Source: an uncultured Gemmatimonadales bacterium
Lineage (GTDB): Bacteria > Gemmatimonadota > Gemmatimonadetes > Gemmatimonadales > JACORV01
Assembly (NCBI GenBank): GCA_963729955.1
Contig: CAVSQA010000008.1
Location: forward strand, 66,547-130,546
DNA length: 64,000 bases
Direction of reading: 5' to 3'
The notes under the pieces were generated by a model. The model did not search any database and had not been told where the DNA came from. It worked only from the letters and a program-made list of their open reading frames with translations. The translations under genes and the position numbers were made by a program. Below are positions 3,938-64,000 of the stretch, in pieces (within the stretch, counting starts at the first letter, position 1; each line of letters opens with the position of its first letter).

Positions 3938-5815
3938 ATGACGCTCGCAGATCTGCCTGTTCTCAACCCGTCCACGCCCGGCCGCGAGGCCCGGCGCGCG
4001 ATACTCGTCGCCATCCTGTTCGCCGTCTTCGGCGCGCTGTACGCCCTGGCGCGAGCCGCCGCCGCCGCGCCGCCCGACCTCTCGGCCTCGACCGGCGACG
4101 TGTTCGGGTTCGCCTACCCGCGCGGTTGGGGACTCGCGGTGGCGCTGTGGTCGGGCGCCGCGCGCTGGCCCTCGAGCCTCGCCAGCGCCGAGACGTTCCT
4201 CGCGGTCAGCGCCACCGTCGTCATGGCGGTCGCCCTGATCGTGGTGATGCACCCCGACCTCCTGGTGCGTCAGGGACCACAGTACGTCTCGCCCGCGCGC
4301 CGCATTACGACCGTGGTCGTGGCCTTCGTGATGGCCTTCCTCATGTACCGCCTGGTGATCGCGGTCGACGGCGTGTTCTCCTTCGACACCCTTGCCACGA
4401 ACCCGGACCGGGCGCGCCGCGTGCTGGTCGGGCTGGGCGCGCTCAGCGCCATCGTGTTCGGCGGCATCTGGTCGTTCATCGGACCCAAGGACTTCGGCCG
4501 GCGCATACCGCTGCGGATTTCGCACGGGGCCCTGGGCGGGATTGCGGTGTGGGGCGCGGTGGCACTGGCGACGCTGCTCTCCAGCCAGGCGCGGAGCTTC
4601 CTCTCCAGCACCCTCGATACCTTCTACACCCTGTTGACGGTGGACGCCGCCAACGGGGCGCCGGGGGCCACGGCGGGCTGGGCCGTGTCGTCGGACGTGC
4701 TCACGGCGGCCACCGCGATGGCGCTGGCGGGCTCGCTGCTCATCGTCACGGCCCCGCAGTCGCTCGGCCCCGGCAACCGCCGCGGCAGCGCCATCGTGTC
4801 CGGCGTGGTGGCGCTGTTCCTGATCGTCGTGGCGGCCACCACCTGGAGCACCACCCAGGCGCGGGCGCGCGAAGTCGACGTGAACGTGGTCAGCGCCCTC
4901 CAGCTCGACCGCACGGCTCCGGCCCGCACGCCCGTGCTGCTCGCGGGTGAGAGTCTCTCGCCCGCGCGGCGCCTCGTCGCCCGGCCGTTGATCGAGCCGA
5001 CGACGACGGCGGACGACTGCATGCACCCTGGCGGCGAGTCGCGGGTGCTGCCCGCGCGCACCGAGAACAACGTCCGCAAGCTCACCGAGTGGCTCCAGAC
5101 ACATCAGGGCGAGGTGAGCGGCATGGCGGTCCGCGTGGCGAGCTGTCGCGCGGCGCTGCAGGCGCTGCTGTGGGAGCCGGACTCGGCCCGCGCGGGCATC
5201 TTCCTCAGCTCGCACCCCGAGCGCATCGGCGCCCTGACGTACCTGTACGCCATGGCGGGCATCAGCACGTCGGCCCCGGCCCTCCTGCGCCGGACGATCG
5301 CGGCGCTGGGCGATACGACGCGCTATCAGCACGGCGTCGAGGCCCCGAAGCGCTTCATGGCGCTCGCCCGGCTGGCCGGCGACTCGGCGGCCGAGGCGGC
5401 CTGGCGCCAGCTCATCGTGACGCCGGCCACCGCGCAGGAGATGGCCTCGCTCCCGGCGCGGCCCGCGTACACCGACGGCGTGGTGAGCGGCCGCATCGCG
5501 ACCACCACGCCCGGTTGGCGGATCGCGCTGCTGATCGCCGACGAGCCGGGTGCCGGCAGCGATCCGACGTCGCAAGCCCCGCGCTCCGAAGGCTCCATCC
5601 TGTCCTCGATGGTGACCGCGACCAACGTCGGACCCGACGGCCGGTTCAGCTTCACCGGCCTCAGGGACGGCTACTACCAGCTCGCGCTGTTGTCGCCGAA
5701 CGGGACCGAGATCCCCCGGTTGACCAAGCTGGTGGTGAAGAACGATCCGGGCGTCTTCCAGCTCGCGGCGACCAGGAAGGTCAAGGATGTGGGGACGGTG
5801 ACGTTGACGTACTGA
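3938..5815 (+). CDS. Hypothetical polytopic membrane protein with a C-terminal CarboxypepD_reg-like beta-sandwich
   Basis: Single 625-aa ORF. The first ~330 aa contain many hydrophobic helices. The C-terminus GPDGRFSFTGLRDGYYQLALLSPNG resembles a carboxypeptidase-regulatory-like domain. No catalytic motif recognised. Confidence 0.6.
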   Translation: MTLADLPVLNPSTPGREARRAILVAILFAVFGALYALARAAAAAPPDLSASTGDVFGFAYPRGWGLAVALWSGAARWPSSLASAETFLAVSATVVMAVALIVVMHPDLLVRQGPQYVSPARRITTVVVAFVMAFLMYRLVIAVDGVFSFDTLATNPDRARRVLVGLGALSAIVFGGIWSFIGPKDFGRRIPLRISHGALGGIAVWGAVALATLLSSQARSFLSSTLDTFYTLLTVDAANGAPGATAGWAVSSDVLTAATAMALAGSLLIVTAPQSLGPGNRRGSAIVSGVVALFLIVVAATTWSTTQARAREVDVNVVSALQLDRTAPARTPVLLAGESLSPARRLVARPLIEPTTTADDCMHPGGESRVLPARTENNVRKLTEWLQTHQGEVSGMAVRVASCRAALQALLWEPDSARAGIFLSSHPERIGALTYLYAMAGISTSAPALLRRTIAALGDTTRYQHGVEAPKRFMALARLAGDSAAEAAWRQLIVTPATAQEMASLPARPAYTDGVVSGRIATTTPGWRIALLIADEPGAGSDPTSQAPRSEGSILSSMVTATNVGPDGRFSFTGLRDGYYQLALLSPNGTEIPRLTKLVVKNDPGVFQLAATRKVKDVGTVTLTY

Positions 5816-5818
5816 GGA

Positions 5819-5940
5819 CGTGAGAGGTGAGAAGCAAGGGGTGAGAAGCGGAACGTGAGACGTGAGAGGTCAAGGTGAGAGGTGAGGGGCGACCCCTCAC
5901 CTCTCACTTCGTCTGCTCACCTCTCACCCGCCCCTCTCAC
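5819..5940. repeat. Heptamer-array palindrome, GTGAG family, copy 1
   Basis: Seven GTGAG units on the left arm (5820, 5827, 5841, 5855, 5862, 5875, 5882) and five CTCAC units on the right arm (5896, 5903, 5916, 5923, 5936). Perfect 15-bp core stem GTGAGAGGTGAGGGG (5875-5889), loop CGA, CCCCTCACCTCTCAC (5893-5907). Confidence 0.9.
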
Positions 5941-40468: not shown

Positions 40469-42869
40469 ATGCGCCTGCGTCTTCCCGTCGTCCTGCTCTG
40501 CGCCGCCGTCCTCGCCGCCGCCGGTTTCGCCGCCCACGCCCGCCTCCGCCCCGGGCGCCAGGCCGACGGCTCCACGCTCCTGGCCGACGGCTGGCGCATC
40601 ACCCCGGCAGGCCGCGCCGTGGCCGTCGGCACGCTGCCGCTCGCGCTGGCGATCCATCCGGACGGACGGGTTCTCACGCTCCTCAGCGGCTACTCGACCA
40701 ACGGCCTGGTGGTGGTGGACCCGGCGCGCTGGGCGGTGAGCGACTCGGTGCCACTGAGCGCCGCCTGGATGGGCCTCGCGGTGCGGCACGACGGCGCCGT
40801 CTTCGCGTCGGGCGGCACCACCGACCGCGTGTGGCGGCTGGTGGAGACCGAGGGGCGGTGGGCGCGCGCCGACAGCGTCGTGCTGGCCGACTCCGGCGCG
40901 TCGGTGTTCCTCTCGGGGCTCTCGCTCGCGCCGGACGGCGGCCGCCTCGCGGTGGTGGGCGACCTGTGCGACTCCGTCTACCTGCTCTCCGCGTCGCCGC
41001 TGCGGCGCACGGCCGCGGCCGCGACCGGCAGCCATCCCTACACTGCGCTGTTCTCGCGCGACGGGCGCACCCTCTACGTCTCGAACTGGGGCGACAGCAC
41101 CGTCAGCGTCTACGGCGTGACGGGCGGCGCGCTGACGCCGCGCGGCGCGCTGGTGGTGCCGCCGCGGCCCTCGGCGCTCGCGCTCTCGCGCGACGGTCGC
41201 ACGCTGTTCATCGCGCACGCCGCCGCGGACGTCGTGTCGCTGGTGGACCTGCGGGACGGACGGGTGGCGCACACCGTGGCGCTGGGACTCACGGCGCGCG
41301 CGCCGCACGGCTCGGGGCCGAACGCCCTCGCGCTCGCGCCCGACGGCCGGACGCTGTACGTGGCCAACGCCGACAACAACGACGTGGCGGTCGTCCGAGC
41401 TCGGCGGTGACGACGGGCCGCGGGTCGCCGGGCTGATCCCGACCGCCTGGTACCCGACGGCCGTGGCGCTGTCGCGCGACGGGCGCACGCTGTACGTCGC
41501 CAACGGCAAGGGTACCGGCTCCGGCCCCAACCCGCTGGGACCGACCGCCCCGGGCTCGCTGCACAGCCAGTACATCGCGGCGCTCCTGGTAGGGCAGCCT
41601 GTCGCCGGATCCCGGTGCCGGATCCGCCCACGCTGCGCCGCTGGACGCGACAGGTGCTCGCCAACTCGCCCTACCGCGACGCGCTCCTCACGCGGGTCCC
41701 GTGGCCGTCGAGCTCGCCGATCCCGGACTCCGTCGGCAAGCCCTCACCCATCCGTCACGTGGTCTACGTCATCCGCGAGAACCGCACCTACGACCAGGTC
41801 TTCGGCGACGACGGCCGCGGCGACGGCGACTCGCGCCTCGCGATCTTCGGCGACTCGGTGACGCCCAACGCGCACGCGCTGGCGCGGCAGTTCGTGCTGT
41901 TCGACAACTTCTACGTGAACGGTGACGTGAGCGCCGACGGCCACTTGTGGGCGGACGCCGGCTACGCCGGCGACTACGTGGAGAAGACCTGGCCCGCCAA
42001 GTACAGCAACCGTCGCGACTGGGACTTCTGGGCCGGGCTCCCGGCCCTCGACCCGCTGGCAGGCTACATCTGGGACGCGGCGCGCCGCGCAGGCGTGACG
42101 GTGCGCAACTACGGCGAGATGACGCAGTGGGACAGCGCGGCGAAGGTCGCGCACACGGACGACAAGGGCCTCGCCGCGATCACCGACCGGCACTTCACCG
42201 GCTGGGACCTGGACGTCACGGACAGCGCGCGCGTGGACGAGTTCCTGCGCGAGCTGGGCGAGGCCGAGCGCGGCGGCACGCTGCCCCAGCTGATGATCCT
42301 GGATCTCCCGCAACGACCACACGTACGGCCGGCAGGCGGGGCGTCCCACGCCGCGCGCCATGGTCGCGGAGAACGACCGCGCGCTGGGGCGGCATGATCG
42401 AGGCGCTCTCGCACTCGCGGTTCTGGAAGGAGACGGCGGTCTTCGTGCTGGAGGACGACGCCCAGAACGGCCCCGATCACGTGGACGCGCACCGCTCACC
42501 GCTCCTCGTCATGAGCCCGTACGTCCGGCGCGGCATGGTGGACAGCACCTTCTACACGACCGCGTCGGTGCTGCGGACCATCGAGCTGATCCTCGGTCTC
42601 CCGCCGCTGAGCCAGTACGATGCCGCCGCCACGCCGCTGTTCCCCGCCTTCACGATGCGAGCCGGACACGGCGCCGTTCGCGGCGCTGCCCTCGCGCTGG
42701 CCGCTGGGCGAGACCAACCCGTGGAGGCGGCACTCCAGCCTGGACCCGCGGGTGTTCCTGCGCGCCCGACTTGGCGGACGAGAACGTGCTGAACCGCGAG
42801 ATCTGGGCGTCGGTGAAGACGACGCCGATGCCGGCGCCGAGGCACTCGGTCGATGCTGGTGAGAGGTGA
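40469..42869 (+). pseudogene. Fusion of a YncE/lactonase-type beta-propeller and a phosphoesterase (PLC/acid-phosphatase family) domain, secreted; frame-disrupted as sequenced
   Basis: Signal peptide MRLRLPVVLLCAAVLAAAGFA. Repeated ...DGRTLYV(A/S)N... propeller blades in ORF 40469..41410 and 41463..41861. Phosphoesterase part (HVVYVIRENRTYDQVFGD...FVLEDDAQNGPDHVDAHRSP) in 41615..42397 and 41947..42792. Stop TGA at 42867-42869. Confidence 0.7.
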
Positions 42870-43011
42870 GAGGTGAGACGTGAGAAGGACAGGTGAGGGG
42901 TGAGAGGGCGAAAGGCGTGAGAGGGCGCGAGGCCGATGTCGCGACGCGCCCTCTCACTTCATCTTCTCACCTCTCACCTCTCCATCTCACGTCTCACCCC
43001 TCACCTCTCAC
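42859..43011. repeat. Heptamer-array palindrome, GTGAG family, copy 2 (most symmetric copy)
   Basis: Seven GTGAG units (42859, 42866, 42873, 42880, 42893, 42900, 42917) and seven CTCAC units (42953, 42966, 42973, 42986, 42993, 43000, 43007). Core stem GTGAGAGGGCGCG (42917-42929) pairs with CGCGCCCTCTCAC (42945-42957). Confidence 0.9.
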
Positions 43012-43014
43012 GCT

Positions 43015-44011
<997 letters not shown>

Positions 44012-44099
44012 GCGGCGGTCCCCTTGCCTCCGGCGAGAAGCCGGAAAGGGTACGGCGCGGGGATGCCGCAGACAAGGCCCGCCGGCTACTATTGCCGCT

Positions 44100-44668
44100 A
44101 TGGACGCCCACGACGCCATCGCCCGACGGACCTCGACCCGGTCCTTCACGGCGGACCGCGTTCCCGCGCCCGCTCATCGAGCGGATCCTCGCCGCCGCCG
44201 TGCGAGCCCCCAACCACAAGCTCACCGAGCCGTGGCGGTTCGCGGTCCTGACCGGCGCCAGCGCCCGGCGGTTCGCCGAGCTCAAGCGCGAGCACCGGGC
44301 CACGCGATTCCCCGATCCGACCGCTCCCGAGGCGGTCCGAGGCCATCGACAAGACGTACCGGGAGGCCCGCGACACCCCGGCCTTCATCATCGTGATGTG
44401 CGCGACCTCCGACGACCCGGTGCGCCAGGAGGAGGACTTCGCGGCGACGATGATGGCGACGGAGAACCTGCTGATCGCGGCCACCGCCGAGGGCCTCGGG
44501 ACCTACGTCCGCACCGGCGGCATCATGCGGGACGCGGCGGTCCGCGAGCTGGCCCAGGCCCCGTCCAGCCACCGCATCGTCGCGGTCGTCTCGCTCGGCC
44601 ACCCCGGCGAGCCGCCGCAGGCCACGCGGCGAGCCGACCCCGCCGCGAAGACGGTCTGGCTGGATTAG
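44100..44668 (+). pseudogene. Nitroreductase-family protein; frame-disrupted as sequenced
   Basis: MDAHDAIARRTSTRSFTADRV (frame of ORF 43779..44396), then LIERILAAAVRAPNHKLTEPWRF (44092..44730), then ...ATENLLIAATAEGLGTYVRTGG...VSLGHPGE (44393..44668). Confidence 0.7.
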
Positions 44669-44726
44669 CCCGGCGGGGCGCACGCCCGGTGCGAATCCGG
44701 CGGCCCGGAGCTAACGTAAGGACACC

Positions 44727-44993
44727 ATGATCGTGGAACTGCTGATTGCGGGCGCGGCGCTGGGCGGCGGCTACAGCTGGACCAAGGGGTTCGTCCGCCG
44801 GCGCCTGCGCTTCGTGGACATGGTGCACACCCGGCCCGCGCCCTGGGTCGCCGGTGCAGCCGCGGCGCTGATCGCCACCCCCGTCACGATCCTGCCGCTC
44901 GTCACCGGAGCGGCGGCGATCGCCCTCGGCCTGGGTGTCGGTCTCGGCGTGCGGTCAGCGCAGCGCGACCGCCTGTTGCCCCCGGGCGACTAG
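44727..44993 (+). CDS. Small hypothetical membrane protein (88 aa, two predicted TM helices)
   Basis: ORF with an ATG start and two hydrophobic stretches (IVELLIAGAALGGG; AAAALIATPVTILPLVTGAAAIALGLGVGLGV). No homology recognised. Confidence 0.45.
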   Translation: MIVELLIAGAALGGGYSWTKGFVRRRLRFVDMVHTRPAPWVAGAAAALIATPVTILPLVTGAAAIALGLGVGLGVRSAQRDRLLPPGD

Positions 44994-45030
44994 CACCACT
45001 CCGGCCGGCGCCGGCGCGCCCAAGCGGCCG

Positions 45031-51660: not shown

Positions 51661-53296
51661 GTGCCGGAAGCCGGACCGGACGAGCGCATCGACGTGGGCG
51701 TGCTGTTCGTCGGGGCGGGACCCGCGGGTCTCGCCGGCGCGATCCGCCTGGCCCAGCTGCTCGAGACCGCGCCCGACGTGAAGGAGCGCCTGGGCGACGT
51801 GCCCATCGCCGTCGTCGAGAAAGGCAAGTACCCCGGGGCGCACCTGGTCTCGGGCGCCGTGGTCAACCCGATCGCCTTCCGATCCCTGTTCCCCGACCTG
51901 CCCGACGCAGGAGCGGCCGTTCCGCGGCCCGGTACCGGGCGAGGCGCTGTACCTGCTCACCGAGCGCCGCGCCCTGCGCGCGCCCGTCATGCCGCCCACG
52001 ATGCGCAATCACGGCAACCACGTCGCGTCCATCAGCGAGATCGCCCGGTGGCTGGCCGGAAAGGCCGAAGCCGCGGGGGTCACGATCCTGACCGAGACGT
52101 CGGCGGTAAAGGCGCTGGTGGCCGATGGCGCGGTGCGCGGCGTGCTGACCGGCGACAAGGGCCGAGGCCGCGACGGCACGCCGGAGGCCAATTTCGAGCC
52201 GGGCGCCGAGATCGTGGCCCGGGCCACGGTGATCGCCGAGGGCTCGAACGGCCATCTGGCCACCGCGCTGGCCCACCACTTCGGCCTCGCCGGCCCGAAC
52301 CCCCAGGTGTACGCCCTGGGCGTGAAAGAGGTGTGGGACGTGCCGCGCCCGCTGGACCGGGTGATCCACACGATGGGCTGGCCGCTCCGCTGGGGAAAGG
52401 CGGCCGCGGAGTTCGGCGGGAGCTTCATCTATCCCATGGGCGAGGGGCAGGTCTCGATCGGCCTCGTCGTCGGTCTCGACTACGCCGACGCGTCACTGTC
52501 GGTGCACGACCTGCTGCAGCAGCTCAAGCTGCATCCCCTGGTGCGGCCCATCCTGGAGGGCGGCACCCGCGCGGGCTGGGGAGCGAAGACCATCCCGGAG
52601 GGCGGGTTCTACGCGCTGCCCTCGCAGCTGAGCGTGCGCGGCGCCGTGCTCACGGGCGATGCCGCCGGCCTGGTCAACGTGCCGGCACTCAAGGGCATCC
52701 ACTACGCGATGTGGTCGGGAATCCTGGCGGCGGAGACGATCTTCGGCTGTCTCAAGGCGGGCCGCGATCCCATCGCGCTCGGCGCCCTCTCGGGCTACGA
52801 CCAGGCCGTGCGGCAGAGCTTCATCGGGCGCGACCTGTACCGCGTGCGCAACATGCGCCAGGCGTTCGGCGGCGGCCTCGTGCCGGGCGCCGCGCTGGCC
52901 GGCCTCATGACCCTGACGCGCGGCGCGTTCCCCGGCGGGCGGTTCGGCAGCGAGCCCGACGCCGCGCGGGCCGTCGCGCTCGGCCACCGCGCCTATCCCA
53001 GGTCCGACGGGCAACGCACCTTCGACAAGCTCTCGAGCGTGTATGCCAGCGGGAACCGCACCCGCGACACGCAGCCCAACCACCTGCTGGTCAAGACCGA
53101 GGTGCCGGAAGCCGTCGCCGCGGCCTGGATCAACATGTGCCCCGCGGGCGTCTACGAGTGGACCACCGACGAGCGCGGCGCGCGCACGCTGCGCATCAAC
53201 GCGCCCAACTGCGTGCAGTGCGGCGCGATCAGCGCCAAGGGGGGAAGGCTCACGCCGCCGGAAGGGGGGAGCGGGCCTGAATACACTGTGACGTGA
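51661..53296 (+). pseudogene. Electron-transfer flavoprotein:ubiquinone oxidoreductase; one frame change as sequenced
   Basis: FAD fold VGVLFVGAGPAGLAGAIRLAQL in ORF 51661..53280. The rest is in 51989..53296, including the C-terminal FeS region CPAGVYEW...NAPNCVQCGAISAKG. The frames switch near 51905-51915. Confidence 0.85.
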
Positions 53297-53376
53297 GGGG
53301 ATTAGGGGCTAGGGACTAGGGGTCAGGGGTTAGGGCCCCGCCCCACACTAACCCCTAGCCCCTAGCCCCTAACCCC
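53293..53376. repeat. Heptamer-array palindrome, telomere-like YTAGGGG / CCCCTAR family
   Basis: The left arm reads GTGAGGGG ATTAGGGG CTAGGGA CTAGGGG TCAGGGG TTAGGG, the loop is CCCCGCCCCACA, and the right arm reads CTAACCCC TAGCCCC TAGCCCC TAACCCC. Core GGGGTTAG (53326-53333) pairs with CTAACCCC (53348-53355). Confidence 0.9.
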
Positions 53377-53401
53377 TGGGTGTGGGGTGTCAGGTGTAGG
53401 G

Positions 53402-55156: not shown

Positions 55157-55495
55157 ATGATGACTACCCTGCGTCAGGCACCGCTCGACCCGCGTGTCCT
55201 GGCCGAAGCCGCGGAGATGGTGCGCGTCCTCGGCCACCCGGTGAGGCTCCGGATCGTCGAGCTGCTCGAGCCTGGCGAGCAGACGGTGACCCAGCTGCAG
55301 GAGAGTCTGGACGCGCCGCAGGCGCTGGTTTCGCAGCAACTGGCGCGGATGCGGGCGGCGGGCATCGTCGAGGGGCGGCGCAGCGGCTCCAACGTCTGGT
55401 ACGCCATCGCCGACGAGCGGGTCGTCCGGATGCTCGACTGTCTGCGCCACTGCGACACCGAGGCTGGGCGCGGCCCCCGCCGACAGGGGGAATGA
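55157..55495 (+). CDS. ArsR/SmtB-family transcriptional regulator
   Basis: ORF 55136..55495. HTH LGHPVRLRIVELLEPGEQTVTQLQESLDAPQALVSQQLARMRAAGIV. The preferred start is ATGATG at 55157. Confidence 0.85.
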   Translation: MMTTLRQAPLDPRVLAEAAEMVRVLGHPVRLRIVELLEPGEQTVTQLQESLDAPQALVSQQLARMRAAGIVEGRRSGSNVWYAIADERVVRMLDCLRHCDTEAGRGPRRQGE

Positions 55496-55572
55496 TGACC
55501 GCACCGGAGAGGCGAGTGGAGGACTGATGACGGCACCGGACAAGCAGAGCGGGGGATTGATGACGGCACCGG
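55486..55572 (+). repeat. Three direct copies of a 22-nt RBS-plus-start motif GGRGGAnTGATGACsGCACCGG (period 32-33 nt)
   Basis: Copies at 55486-55507, 55518-55539 and 55551-55572. Each TGATG joins a stop to a start. The arsR stop meets a 10-codon mini-ORF (MTAPERRVED). The mini-ORF stop meets the DUF302 ORF, whose product begins [20 protein letters not shown]. Confidence 0.85.
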
Positions 55573-60573: not shown

Positions 60574-61564
60574 CCTGTCGACCAGCTATCTGGGGCTCAC
60601 CCTGTCGAGCCCCCTGGTGGCCTCGGCCTCGCCCTTGAGCGAGGACCTCGGGAACCTGCGGCGGATGGAGGATGCCGGCGCCGCCGCCGTGGTGCTCCAT
60701 TCCCTGTTCGAGGAGCAGATCGAGCGCGAGAGCCAGGCCCTCGACCGCTCGCTCTCGGCGGGGACCGAGACCTACGCGGAATCGCTCACCTACTTCCCGG
60801 ACCTCAAGCACTACAACCTCGGGCCGGAGGGGTACCTCGAGCACGTGCGCAGGGCCAAGGCGGCGCTCGGCATTCCCGTGATCGGAAGCCTCAACGGCAT
60901 CTCGAGTGGCGGGTGGGTGGACTACGCGCGGGGCATCGAGCAGGCGGGCGCCGACGCGCTGGAGCTCAACGTCTACTTCATCCCGACCGAACCCCACCTG
61001 ACCGGCGCCGCGGTCGAGCAGCAATACTGCGACCTGGTGCGCGACGTGAAGGCCGCCGTCGGGATTCCCCTCGCCGTCAAGGTGGGACACCAGTTCTCGG
61101 CGTTCGCGAACATGGCGCGGCGGCTCGAGGAGGCCGGCGCCGACGCGCTGGTCCTGTTCAACCGCTTCTACCAGCCGGACCTGGACGTCGAGAACCTCGA
61201 GGTGCTGAGCGCCCTGTCGCTCAGCCAGCCCTACGAGCTGCTGCTCCGGCTGCACTGGATCGCGGTGCTGTACGGCCGGATCGAGGCGGACCTCGCCGTG
61301 ACGGGCGGCGTGCACGAGGCGCGCGACGTGCTCAAGGCGATGATGGCTGGTGCCAACGTGGCGATGATGGCCTCGGCATTGCTCAAGCGGGGCATTCCGC
61401 ACCTGGCGACCGTGCGCCGGGACCTGGAGGCGTGGATGGCGGAGCGCGAGTACGAATCCATCCGCCAGATGCGCGGCAGCCTGAGCCAGCGGTCCGCAGC
61501 CAACCCCGAGGCGTTCGAGCGGGCGAATTACGTGAAGGTGCTGTCGAGCTACGCGATGAAATAG
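60566..61564 (+). CDS. Dihydroorotate-dehydrogenase-like TIM-barrel flavoprotein (function unknown), intact
   Basis: 332-aa ORF. ATG 60566 overlaps the PFOR stop by 8 nt (ATGACTGA). Class-1 DHOD-like layout ([10 protein letters not shown]...IGSLNG...ADALELNVY...AVKVG...VTGGV). Confidence 0.75.
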
Positions 61565-61743
61565 GTGAGACGTGAGGGGTGAGAGGTGAGAGGACGACGT
61601 GAGAGGTGAGAAGGGAAAGCGAAAGGTGAGAAGAAAGGCGTGAGAGGCCGGCCCCGTCCTCTCACGCCTTTTGACCTCTCACCTCGCACCTCACCCTCTC
61701 ACGTCTCACCTTACCCTCTCACCCCTCACGACTCACCTCTCAC
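61565..61743. repeat. Heptamer-array palindrome, GTGAG family, copy 3 (longest)
   Basis: Eight GTGAG units (61565, 61572, 61579, 61586, 61599, 61606, 61626, 61640). Nine CTCAC units (61661, 61678, 61690, 61698, 61705, 61718, 61725, 61732, 61739) plus one degenerate CTCGCAC. Confidence 0.9.
61634..61671. terminator. Core hairpin of the palindrome with flanking T/A runs (bidirectional intrinsic-terminator-like)
   Basis: AAAGGCGTGAGAGG (61634-61647), a 10-nt loop, then CCTCTCACGCCTTT (61658-61671): a perfect 14-bp stem. It is followed by TTTTG on the + strand and by CTTTCTTC on the - strand. Confidence 0.55.
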
Positions 61744-63267: not shown

Positions 63268-64000
63268 CTAGTTGCGCGGTTCGCTCGGCCCCGGCTCGGT
63301 CGAGCTCGGCTTCGCCGGCGCCGCGGCGGGTGTTCCGGCCGGCGGCTTCGCCGGGCCCGGAGCCGGGACGGCCGCCGGGCGCACCGGAGCCGCCGTCGGC
63401 GACGGGGGCGCCGTCGCCGGCCTGGGCGGCGGAACGGCCGCCGACCCGGCTTGCGGTGCGGCGGCGGGCTTCGCCGCGGGAGCCGGCGCGGCGGCGGGCT
63501 TCGATCCGGCTGGAGCCGGCGCGGCGGCCGGTGCGCCAGCCGGCTTCGGCGGCGCGGCAGGCTTCGCTCCCGGCGGTCCGGGCGCGGCGGCCCTGGGGCC
63601 GGCAGGCCCCGGGGCGCCAGCCGGGGCGGCGCCCGCCCTCGGCGCCGCCGGAGGCTTCACTCCGGCCGGAACCGGTGCGGCAGCCGGCCTCGGAGCCGGC
63701 GGTTTCGCCGCCGGAGCAGGCACGGCCCCCGGCTTCGGGGCGCCGGACGGCGTCGCCGCGGCGGGACCGGTGACGGTGGCGGCCGCGGGCTTGGCCTGAG
63801 CCGTGGTCGCACGCTTGGCCGCCTCCCTCGCCTCTTCGGCGATCACCCGCGCCTTGATGTGCTCGGCCTGCTCCTTCATCTCCTTCTCGTGGAGATAGGC
63901 CTTCTCCTTCTGCTGCGACTCGTCGGCCGTGATGGTCGCCTTGATCGTGCGCTCGACGAGCGCGCGGAAGGACGCCACCCCGTCCCGCAGCACCCGCCCC
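63268..64000 (-). CDS. Hypothetical protein with a charged coiled-coil-like segment and a long Pro/Ala-rich C-terminal tail (partial; 5' end beyond the window)
   Basis: The frame is open to the window edge; the ORF track starts at GTG 63993. The TAG stop (63268-63270) is 13 nt upstream of the pilT ATG, with AGGGGA between. The tail is about 170 aa of (K)PAAAPAPAG-type low complexity. Confidence 0.5.
   Translation of the reverse strand, partial: GRVLRDGVASFRALVERTIKATITADESQQKEKAYLHEKEMKEQAEHIKARVIAEEAREAAKRATTAQAKPAAATVTGPAAATPSGAPKPGAVPAPAAKPPAPRPAAAPVPAGVKPPAAPRAGAAPAGAPGPAGPRAAAPGPPGAKPAAPPKPAGAPAAAPAPAGSKPAAAPAPAAKPAAAPQAGSAAVPPPRPATAPPSPTAAPVRPAAVPAPGPAKPPAGTPAAAPAKPSSTEPGPSEPRN

Follow-up and report, generated by a model that had tools for sequence, protein, structure and literature searches.

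A palindrome of GTGAGNN heptamer arrays between convergent genes of a Gemmatimonadales bacterium, probably one copy of a dispersed gene-end repeat family

The DNA analysed here, to which we refer as the window, is a 64,000-nt stretch of contig CAVSQA010000008.1 (positions 66,547 to 130,546) from an uncultured Gemmatimonadales bacterium, and our subject is the imperfect palindrome that fills the gap between two of its convergent genes. These are a gene for a lactonase/phosphoesterase fusion (∼40469-42869, + strand), whose TGA stop at 42867..42869 lies within the second heptamer unit of the element, and fabH (∼43015-44011, - strand), whose TGA stop at 43015..43017 ends the open reading frame (ORF) of the FabH C-terminal domain. 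The left, G-rich arm (42859..42929, + strand) carries seven GTGAG units, which begin at 42859 and follow one another at steps of 7-7-7-13-7-17 nt, and ends in the inner stem half GTGAGAGGGCGCG. The right, C-rich arm (42945..43019, + strand) carries seven CTCAC units over 42953-43011 at steps of 13-7-13-7-7-7 nt and a degenerate outer unit, GCTTCAC, that contains the fabH stop codon; the stop codons of both convergent genes thus fall in the outermost units of the palindrome. Tandem Repeats Finder (TRF) gives a period of 7 nt, with 7.3 and 6.9 copies in the two arms. A central spacer of 15 nt (AGGCCGATGTCGCGA, 42930..42944) separates the halves of a 13-bp inner stem (42917-42929 / 42945-42957, 100% complementary), and the longest inverted repeat (42859-42912 / 42958-43011) pairs arms of 54 nt at 87% complementarity. 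The left arm also holds, at 42910, a 12-mer that is not made of units, GAAAGGCGTGAG. The unit spacings and mirrored arms, the perfect central stem and the flanking stops with the palindrome filling the gap between them had all been described in a first-pass annotation of this DNA and were borne out by our recount, the mirror symmetry being near-exact, with an innermost step of 17 nt on one side and 13 nt on the other.

The same annotation had proposed a long, register-tolerant hairpin, and folding of both strands agreed with it: either strand is predicted to form a single hairpin of ∼65 pairs, at -127.0 kcal/mol (+ strand) and -128.7 kcal/mol (- strand), compared with -65 ± 5 kcal/mol for dinucleotide shuffles (z = -12 and -14, respectively). 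TGA triplets in all three frames were likewise found from both directions, at 42860, 42867 and 42874 on the + strand and at 43017, 43010 and 43003 on the - strand. Three consecutive GTGAGNN units (GTGAGNNGTGAGNNGTGAG), allowing at most one mismatch, match nine times in the window, where 0.01 matches would be expected. We ruled out a coding sequence on the grounds that the G-rich sense has stops in every frame, and the ORFs that run over the C-rich arm (42496..42957, - strand, and 42893..43156, + strand) have neither a family match nor a coding signature. An assembly artefact was also ruled out, since independent assemblies, short-read ones among them, show this structure at this site too.

A frame plot places the TGA at 42867-42869 in the frame of the upstream gene's final coding segment, and in relatives this gene encodes a 797-aa fusion of a lactonase/beta-propeller and a phosphoesterase. 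It seems to end at the second TGA of the element in the window, and 5 nt before the first unit in L209, a short-read contig from a close relative (95.6% nucleotide identity). Compared with this contig the window contains isolated 1-base insertions, and reading frames break inside conserved domains about five times in the phosphoesterase fusion, once in fabH, where a single-base insertion near 43363 splits the ORF, and in the ETF-QO gene too. We regard these insertions as probable consensus indels of a long-read assembly, not as signs of pseudogenes. Frame changes were seen in many window genes, over 40469-44011 and elsewhere (for example, 51661-53296). The irregular 13-nt step of the palindrome is real, because it also occurs in the independently assembled L209 and in a further relative, L214.

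Three other palindromes of this kind are present in the window. A second GTGAG-heptamer palindrome (5820..5940, + strand) lies between two + strand genes, the upstream one ending in a TGA at 5813-5815, and has an apex loop of 3 nt. A third (61563..61743, + strand) lies between a DHO-dehydrogenase-like gene, with its TAG at 61562-61564, and pilT on the - strand, the TGA of which (61740-61742) is inside the last CTCAC unit; this copy has GAAAGGCGTGAG at 61633. The remaining palindrome (53297..53377, + strand) represents a sister family with (C/T)TAGGGG heptamers as its units; it separates the ETF-QO gene (TGA 53294-53296) from a - strand GAF-domain gene, and the CTAGGGG-type unit is also found in the orthologous GAF/ETF-QO gap of a related contig, L120. 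According to TRF and a repeat finder, these four palindromes outrank all other inverted repeats of the 64 kb in strength. Every one of them starts at a stop codon or within a few bases of one, and outer units enclose three of the gene stops. Whole GTGAG elements measure 120-180 nt, with arms of 55-90 nt made of 7-nt units.

Relatives of the fabH site were retrieved with the reconstructed FabH, and the contigs L209, L210, L211-213 and L214 were compared. The first-pass annotation had suggested a comparison of orthologous intergenic regions; the fabH/phosphoesterase gap is convergent and palindrome-filled in every relative sampled, while its sequence and even the family that occupies it turn over. 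GTGAG palindromes are present in L209 (FabH 97% identical) and L214 (88%), and a family with the fixed ends ACGGGGAGGTGATG...CCTCCCCGT in L210 (90%) and L211-213 (89%). The three orthologues of GTGAG type can be aligned over the fabH-side arm with no indel of unit size and keep a 7-7-7-13-7 layout, which argues that the layout is inherited and not constantly reshuffled.

A similar picture emerged from syntenic pilT, hypE and ETF-QO loci with gene calls in five related genomes; relatives of the pilT-like ATPase, at 74-92% identity, are annotated as Gemmatimonadales. A heptamer palindrome is present in the gap behind pilT in 5/5 syntenic genomes, in the hypE/F-ABC gap also in 5/5, and in the GAF/ETF-QO gap in 1/4, with a one-armed array in a second (L206). 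The family sits in 3′ gaps, directly on stop codons, and none of the six divergent (promoter) gaps examined in the syntenic loci contains a palindrome. Five unit types occur in these loci, namely GTGAGNN, GTGATGN (period ∼8, with ends ACGGGGAGGTGATG...), CTAGGGG, GGGTGTA and GATTGGG, and a switch of unit type between orthologues affects both arms together. One-armed arrays only were found in L129 and in the ETF-QO gap of L206. In two contigs the GAF/ETF-QO gap is ∼690 nt long (L121 18443-19124 and L204 18773-19470), is conserved between both and has neither a called gene nor a heptamer palindrome; it may contain an unannotated gene or RNA.

The copies form a multi-copy family with common non-unit sequence. 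A search for landmarks that are not made of units covered 3.09 Mb (the window and loci of relatives and other genomes), in which GAAAGGCGTGAG, not a heptamer multiple, occurs solely inside these elements and at the innermost stem: in the fabH-site and pilT-site copies of the window and in the pilT-site copies of L204, L205 and L208. A 16-mer is common to window position 42909 and L208 position 11580. The ACGGGGAGGTGATG/ACGGGGAGGTGA family has fixed terminal inverted repeats of 12-14 nt (ACGGGGAGGTGA...), and two copies in L120 also have their loop in common, their similarity ending exactly at ACGGGGAGGTGA / TCACCTCCCCGT. This motif occurs 12 times in the 3.09 Mb, always as the two termini of an element, and ACGGGGAGGTGA ends are found at the fabH site of L210-213 as well. 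Terminal inverted repeats and sharp boundaries like those of MITEs (miniature inverted-repeat transposable elements) are therefore present in the ACGGGGAGGTGA family, while the ends of the GTGAG family are the units themselves. Non-unit 12-16-mers common to different loci point to a dispersed family and not to independent microsatellites.

The junction between two ABC-transporter genes (ABC/ABC2) suggests how such arrays may begin. In three genomes it consists of overlapping stop and start codons (GAGTGATGG or GATGCGTAA). L206 has a one-armed array there (5042-5090) with five extra GTGATGC-type units, the first of which gives the upstream TGA while the last, GTGATG, gives the start of the next gene, and the array resembles 7-nt duplications of the native stop/start overlap. 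In L120 a complete palindrome is inserted between the stop and a new Shine-Dalgarno sequence and ATG. Slippage and copying between loci thus both seem to operate. As a side observation, the terminal motif TGACGGGGAGGTGAT (L120 5116-5238) resembles ABC coding sequence ∼30 nt upstream, CTGACGGGGAG(A/G)CAT (encoding LTGRH), which is also seen at L206 5020-5035; the resemblance could be a coincidence or a hint at the origin of the family.

For a broader survey, one genome per species was scanned for four GTGAGNN units, and IMG/VR viral contigs (L215-L334) were scanned likewise; all survey counts and percentages given here and below refer to loci among the matches listed. Four-unit GTGAGNN loci span many phyla. 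Where heptamer arrays form inverted pairs, the G-rich arm comes first in 39/40 genome loci (p = 7e-11, with one complex locus left out) and in 71/72 viral loci, that is, in 110 pairs against 2, and every Gemmatimonadales pair examined is G-first. Such a rule needs an orienting force, and it means that each flanking gene runs into a G-rich, stop-rich sense. One-armed arrays also face genes in the G-sense: among unpaired arrays, an open frame of at least 100 codons ends no more than 40 nt before the G-sense entry in 40%, compared with 16% at the C-sense entry and ∼7-11% at random positions. A period of 7 nt is the commonest tandem period, accounting for 35/∼106 arrays even in loci that had been fetched for an unrelated reason. 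GTGAG-type arrays are common in the viral/proviral contigs, in which period 7 dominates the tandem repeats (465 arrays). Composite elements were also seen, in Pyrinomonadaceae, Flammeovirgaceae, Thermoguttaceae and Chthoniobacterales, where heptamer-array termini in G-first order surround a unique core of 150-250 nt that holds nested hairpins (L038 5012-5403, L047 1002-1257, L066 1164-1485 and L050 5580-5868).

On balance, we think that the palindrome between fabH and the phosphoesterase gene is probably one copy of a dispersed, non-coding, hairpin-forming repeat family whose arms are degenerate GTGAGNN arrays and which is akin to MITEs or to repetitive extragenic palindromic (REP) sequences and their paired, hairpin-forming arrangement (REPINs). 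Its most likely function would be that of a REP/REPIN-like gene-end hairpin without a U-tract. Transcription from either side would produce an RNA hairpin of ∼65 bp, which could mark and protect the 3′ ends of both convergent transcripts by RNA polymerase pausing or termination and by blocking 3′ exonucleases, could limit antisense read-through into the neighbouring gene and might be cut by RNase III. The arms would lengthen and shorten by 7-nt slippage, the stop-rich, G-first orientation would let an element lie against or replace the stop of a gene without harm, and spread between loci would occur by copying, either through transposition by an unseen enzyme or through gene conversion. A conventional Rho-independent terminator is not present, as there is no T-run after the hairpin on either strand and no hairpin with a T-tract in 41000-45000, and such sites do not exceed shuffles anywhere in the 64-kb window. 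Canonical promoters are likewise absent at the element and not above shuffles in the window. Two other convergent gaps of the window contain plain GC-rich inverted repeats, as read from the sequence.

Several observations weigh against this reading. No target-site duplication is visible in the comparison of empty and filled ABC/ABC2 junctions, and no transposase, parent insertion sequence or other mobility signature was seen in the window and the compared loci, which make up a small search space. A tblastn search of the compared DNA, which includes only 64 kb of this genome, for a REP-associated tyrosine transposase (RAYT) gave no match with an approximate E. coli query, a result that says nothing either way. 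Covariation is weak: the fabH-site orthologues contain three compensatory double changes in 61 predicted pairs, and ∼13/61 pairs are broken in one sequence. The pilT gaps of related contigs L124, L127 and L128 are without an array, and in these genomes the element is dispensable. No terminator would need nearly so long a stem, and the proposed role in termination or stabilisation, though plausible, is purely inferred. In contexts transcribed in one direction, mismatches show no G-U versus A-C asymmetry (20 vs 17), a result as compatible with a DNA-level or neutral origin as with selection at the RNA level. Arm-versus-arm identity is 0.77-0.88 within an element and 0.72-0.88 between elements, and this comparison does not separate concerted evolution from transposition because the arms are of low complexity. 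Finally, genome-wide copy number and 3′ bias are extrapolated from 64 kb.

The alternative that survives best is a neutral one, in which local 7-nt slippage starting from the stop-codon context builds the first arm, an inverted duplication or template switch supplies the second, and the product has no cellular role and is tolerated in 3′ gaps. The dominance of period 7 in unselected loci speaks for it and agrees with a published excess of heptamers, as cited in PMC4692102, and so do several likenesses between units and their surroundings: the L206 ABC/ABC2 array has the appearance of repeated native GATGCGT(A/G)A overlaps, the GGGTGTA units of the hypE gap resemble the gene end TGTTAG, and the native stop and the first unit are often fused (GCGTGAG at pilT). 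Unit types at one site differ between close relatives, stops are about as frequent as composition predicts, and the RNA-level strand asymmetry is missing. What a neutral origin does not explain is that non-unit 12-16-mers and fixed terminal inverted repeats are common to copies at non-orthologous loci and in different genomes, or that a palindrome occupies the same gap in each of the five genomes sampled at the fabH site and in 5/5 syntenic genomes at the pilT site. A fast-slipping neutral microsatellite would also not be expected to keep the 7-7-7-13-7 layout without unit indels between orthologues whose FabH proteins are 88-97% identical, and the 110:2 rule calls for a force that orients the arms. 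We therefore consider a purely neutral origin possible but doubtful.

A bolder extension of the dispersed-family reading, which we judge improbable and offer as speculation, is that G-first heptamer palindromes are a distinct cross-phylum class of self-propagating 'gene-end caps', phage-borne too, that spread by non-RAYT copying and would be kept as insulators combining all-frame stops, ribosome-tethering G arms that resemble Shine-Dalgarno sequences and a two-way transcription-stopping hairpin in genomes without U-tract terminators.

Little can be said for the proposal, made in the first-pass annotation, that selection has kept the element mainly because it acts as a translational fail-safe, stopping all three frames from either direction, coupled to a terminator hairpin. 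The property itself is present and common. All four window copies stop every frame within 45 nt from both sides, so that the refuting condition named in that annotation, a frequent lack of TGA in one or more frames of other copies, does not arise here; elsewhere, every frame is covered in both arms of 57 of the 110 G-first pairs, and only 2 have none covered. Gene stops are embedded in first units, and the shifting end of the upstream gene, seemingly at the second TGA in the window and 5 nt before the first unit in L209, also fits a back-up stop. It is the notion of a 'design' that is weakly supported. For arrays with non-GTGA units, read in the G-rich sense, the expected number of stops was obtained from permutations of the same letters, and observed stop-bearing units barely exceed it: 60 against 51.8 of 93 and 19 against 16 of 25, with 32 against 25.5 of 46 for paired arrays (p = 0.04) and 72 against 71.7 of 163 for unpaired ones. 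Since stop codons have no C, any C-poor heptamer tends to hold one, and stop-free units (in 14/46 pairs, and GATTGGG in L206) are G-first all the same. Conservation of the unit goes past TGA to GTGA(G/T), which a stop-only constraint leaves unexplained, and ordinary genes do not need a back-up in two wrong frames. For the stop-bearing TAACTGA repeats discussed below, stops in all three frames had already been noted and were explained as a positional constraint, not as a function (PMC4679880). The all-frame stops are thus mostly a by-product of composition and are best seen as a property that lets arrays lie against or replace a stop codon; that they are the selected function is less likely, and we give this proposal little credence.

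Equally improbable, in our view, is a role for the G-rich arm as the active part, with the C-rich arm merely masking it, be it as a site on the non-template strand where a G-quadruplex or R-loop causes pausing, or as an array of binding sites for the 16S rRNA 3′ tail or for a multimeric RNA-binding protein recognising triplets spaced 7 nt apart. The near-universal G-first order and the orientation of one-armed arrays suit such a role, as do the Shine-Dalgarno-like GAGGTGA and GGAGGTGAT units, which we take to be exact complements of the conserved 16S rRNA 3′ tail (AUCACCUCC), and the last unit of the L206 array, GTGATG, which supplies the start codon of the next gene. The sister families CTAGGGG, GGGTGTA and GATTGGG moreover have runs of three or four G, like GGGAATC and GGGGATT, which fold into G-quadruplexes in vitro (PMC4692102). 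Against this, GTGAGAG has only GG runs and is a poor quadruplex former; it lacks the four or more runs of at least three G that a quadruplex calls for, and at the sequence level these are present only in the 53297-53377 CTAGGGG copy. G-quadruplexes are accordingly unlikely for the GTGAGNN family, because it has no G3 tracts. The palindromic form would lock the G arm into a predicted duplex of great stability, a Shine-Dalgarno likeness is missing from most of the other unit types, arrays are found as well in phyla in which Shine-Dalgarno sequences are hardly used, and no candidate binding protein was identified. As an observation, units of the GAGGTGA/GGAGGTGAT type are found at window 42861-42878, L120 11533-11545 and L210 5011-5025, where the G arms look like Shine-Dalgarno arrays and the C arms seem to mimic anti-Shine-Dalgarno sequence; this likeness is absent from the other unit families.

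The first-pass annotation recognised no described class in the palindrome, but the class has been described: inverted ('convergent') pairs of G-rich heptamer arrays close behind ORFs are known in Xanthomonas (PMC4692102). The GGGAATC repeats of Xanthomonas and the GGGGA(C/T)T repeats of Nostoc (Rehm et al. 2015, PMC4692102) are the closest description, with units of period 7 as here. They are 89-93% intergenic, lie on average 28 nt behind the upstream ORF, have their G-rich strand on the coding strand downstream of genes, are under-represented between divergent genes and form ∼70 convergent inverted pairs per genome that are capable of stem-loops; they vary in length and sequence between close relatives, and their function was reported as unknown (PMC4692102). 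Our elements share the intergenic location behind an ORF, the G-sense, the G-first inverted pairs and the absence from divergent gaps (0/6), but differ in phylum and unit, in that their units carry stop codons and their arrays touch or include the stop of the gene, and in the conserved higher-order layout and common non-unit landmarks of their arms, which point to copy-and-paste families. The GTGAGNN family and its sister families thus join a known, poorly understood kind of heptamer palindrome.

Other known repeats are more distant. The TAACTGA repeats of Beggiatoaceae, Cyanobacteria and Bacteroidetes (MacGregor 2015, PMC4679880) are likewise stop-bearing heptamers with forward stops in three frames, may overlap the end of the upstream ORF and have a patchy phylogenetic spread. 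Unlike the elements described here, they are direct repeats of 2-6 units just upstream of start codons, with one inverted case in 170, and they are AT-rich and have been proposed as sites for a translational regulator, not as long 3′-end hairpins (PMC4679880). REP sequences, bacterial interspersed mosaic elements (BIMEs) and REPINs (PMC2817692, PMC3116915, PMC3733652), which RAYTs mobilise, are likewise extragenic palindromes, dispersed and frequently found in 3′ gaps or between genes that converge. A REPIN is a hairpin of ∼100 nt made of two inverted halves, and mRNA 3′-end stabilisation and termination are among the roles proposed for these elements (same sources). Of our elements, four were counted in the 64 kb, and homologues of them lie at other loci in relatives; neither edge has GTAG or CGTC, the ends being GTGAGAGGTGAG...CTCACCTCTCAC, and the arms are tandem 7-nt arrays instead of a unique palindrome of 20-40 nt. 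Cyanobacterial short tandemly repeated repetitive sequences (STRRs) and the excess of heptameric simple sequence repeats in prokaryotes (Mazel 1990; Mrazek 2007), as cited in PMC4692102 and PMC4679880, are tandem, genome-specific and intergenic as here, with slippage proposed as the source of the 7-nt preference; in those citing accounts such arrays are described as direct, and a palindromic, G-first layout at gene ends is not part of the description.

Hairpins without a U-tract (I-shaped hairpins) are GC-rich, stand right after the stop codon in high-GC bacteria and are common to convergent genes. They are unique sequences of 8-15 bp, whereas the stems here are 55-70 bp long, repetitive and multi-copy. 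Integron attC sites were rejected, as the sequence lacks RYYYAAC ... GTTRRRY core sites and is flanked by housekeeping genes whose synteny is conserved, and anatomy and context also rule out a clustered regularly interspaced short palindromic repeat (CRISPR) array or a retron. Rfam gave no match at the gathering score over the whole window, and its sub-threshold matches are generic microRNA-precursor hairpins that reflect merely a long hairpin. In the literature we found no description of such repeats in Gemmatimonadota.

Heptamers are the most over-represented long simple repeats in bacteria. To this the present comparison adds that arrays of inverted heptamers fall into discrete families marked by fixed ends and by landmarks inside the elements, that the same gene-end gap stays occupied despite turnover of sequence and family, and that the near-absolute G-first orientation (110:2) extends over many phyla and viral contigs. 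If these hairpins are working 3′-end signals of high-GC phyla such as Gemmatimonadota (no U-tract terminators were found in the window), this would matter for operon prediction, for the annotation of gene ends and for antisense control.

Two other tandem repeats were seen in the window. At 55486-55572 a 33-nt unit present in 2.6 copies duplicates the junction between an ArsR-type helix-turn-helix gene and a DUF302 gene, each copy having (A/T)TGATGACGGCACCGG, which combines the stop/start overlap with the opening codons of the gene downstream. Here too, a gene junction may have seeded the tandem duplication. At 63454-63592, on the 5′ side of pilT (- strand), lie GC-rich tandem repeats of 30 and 63 nt in 2.2-2.4 copies.

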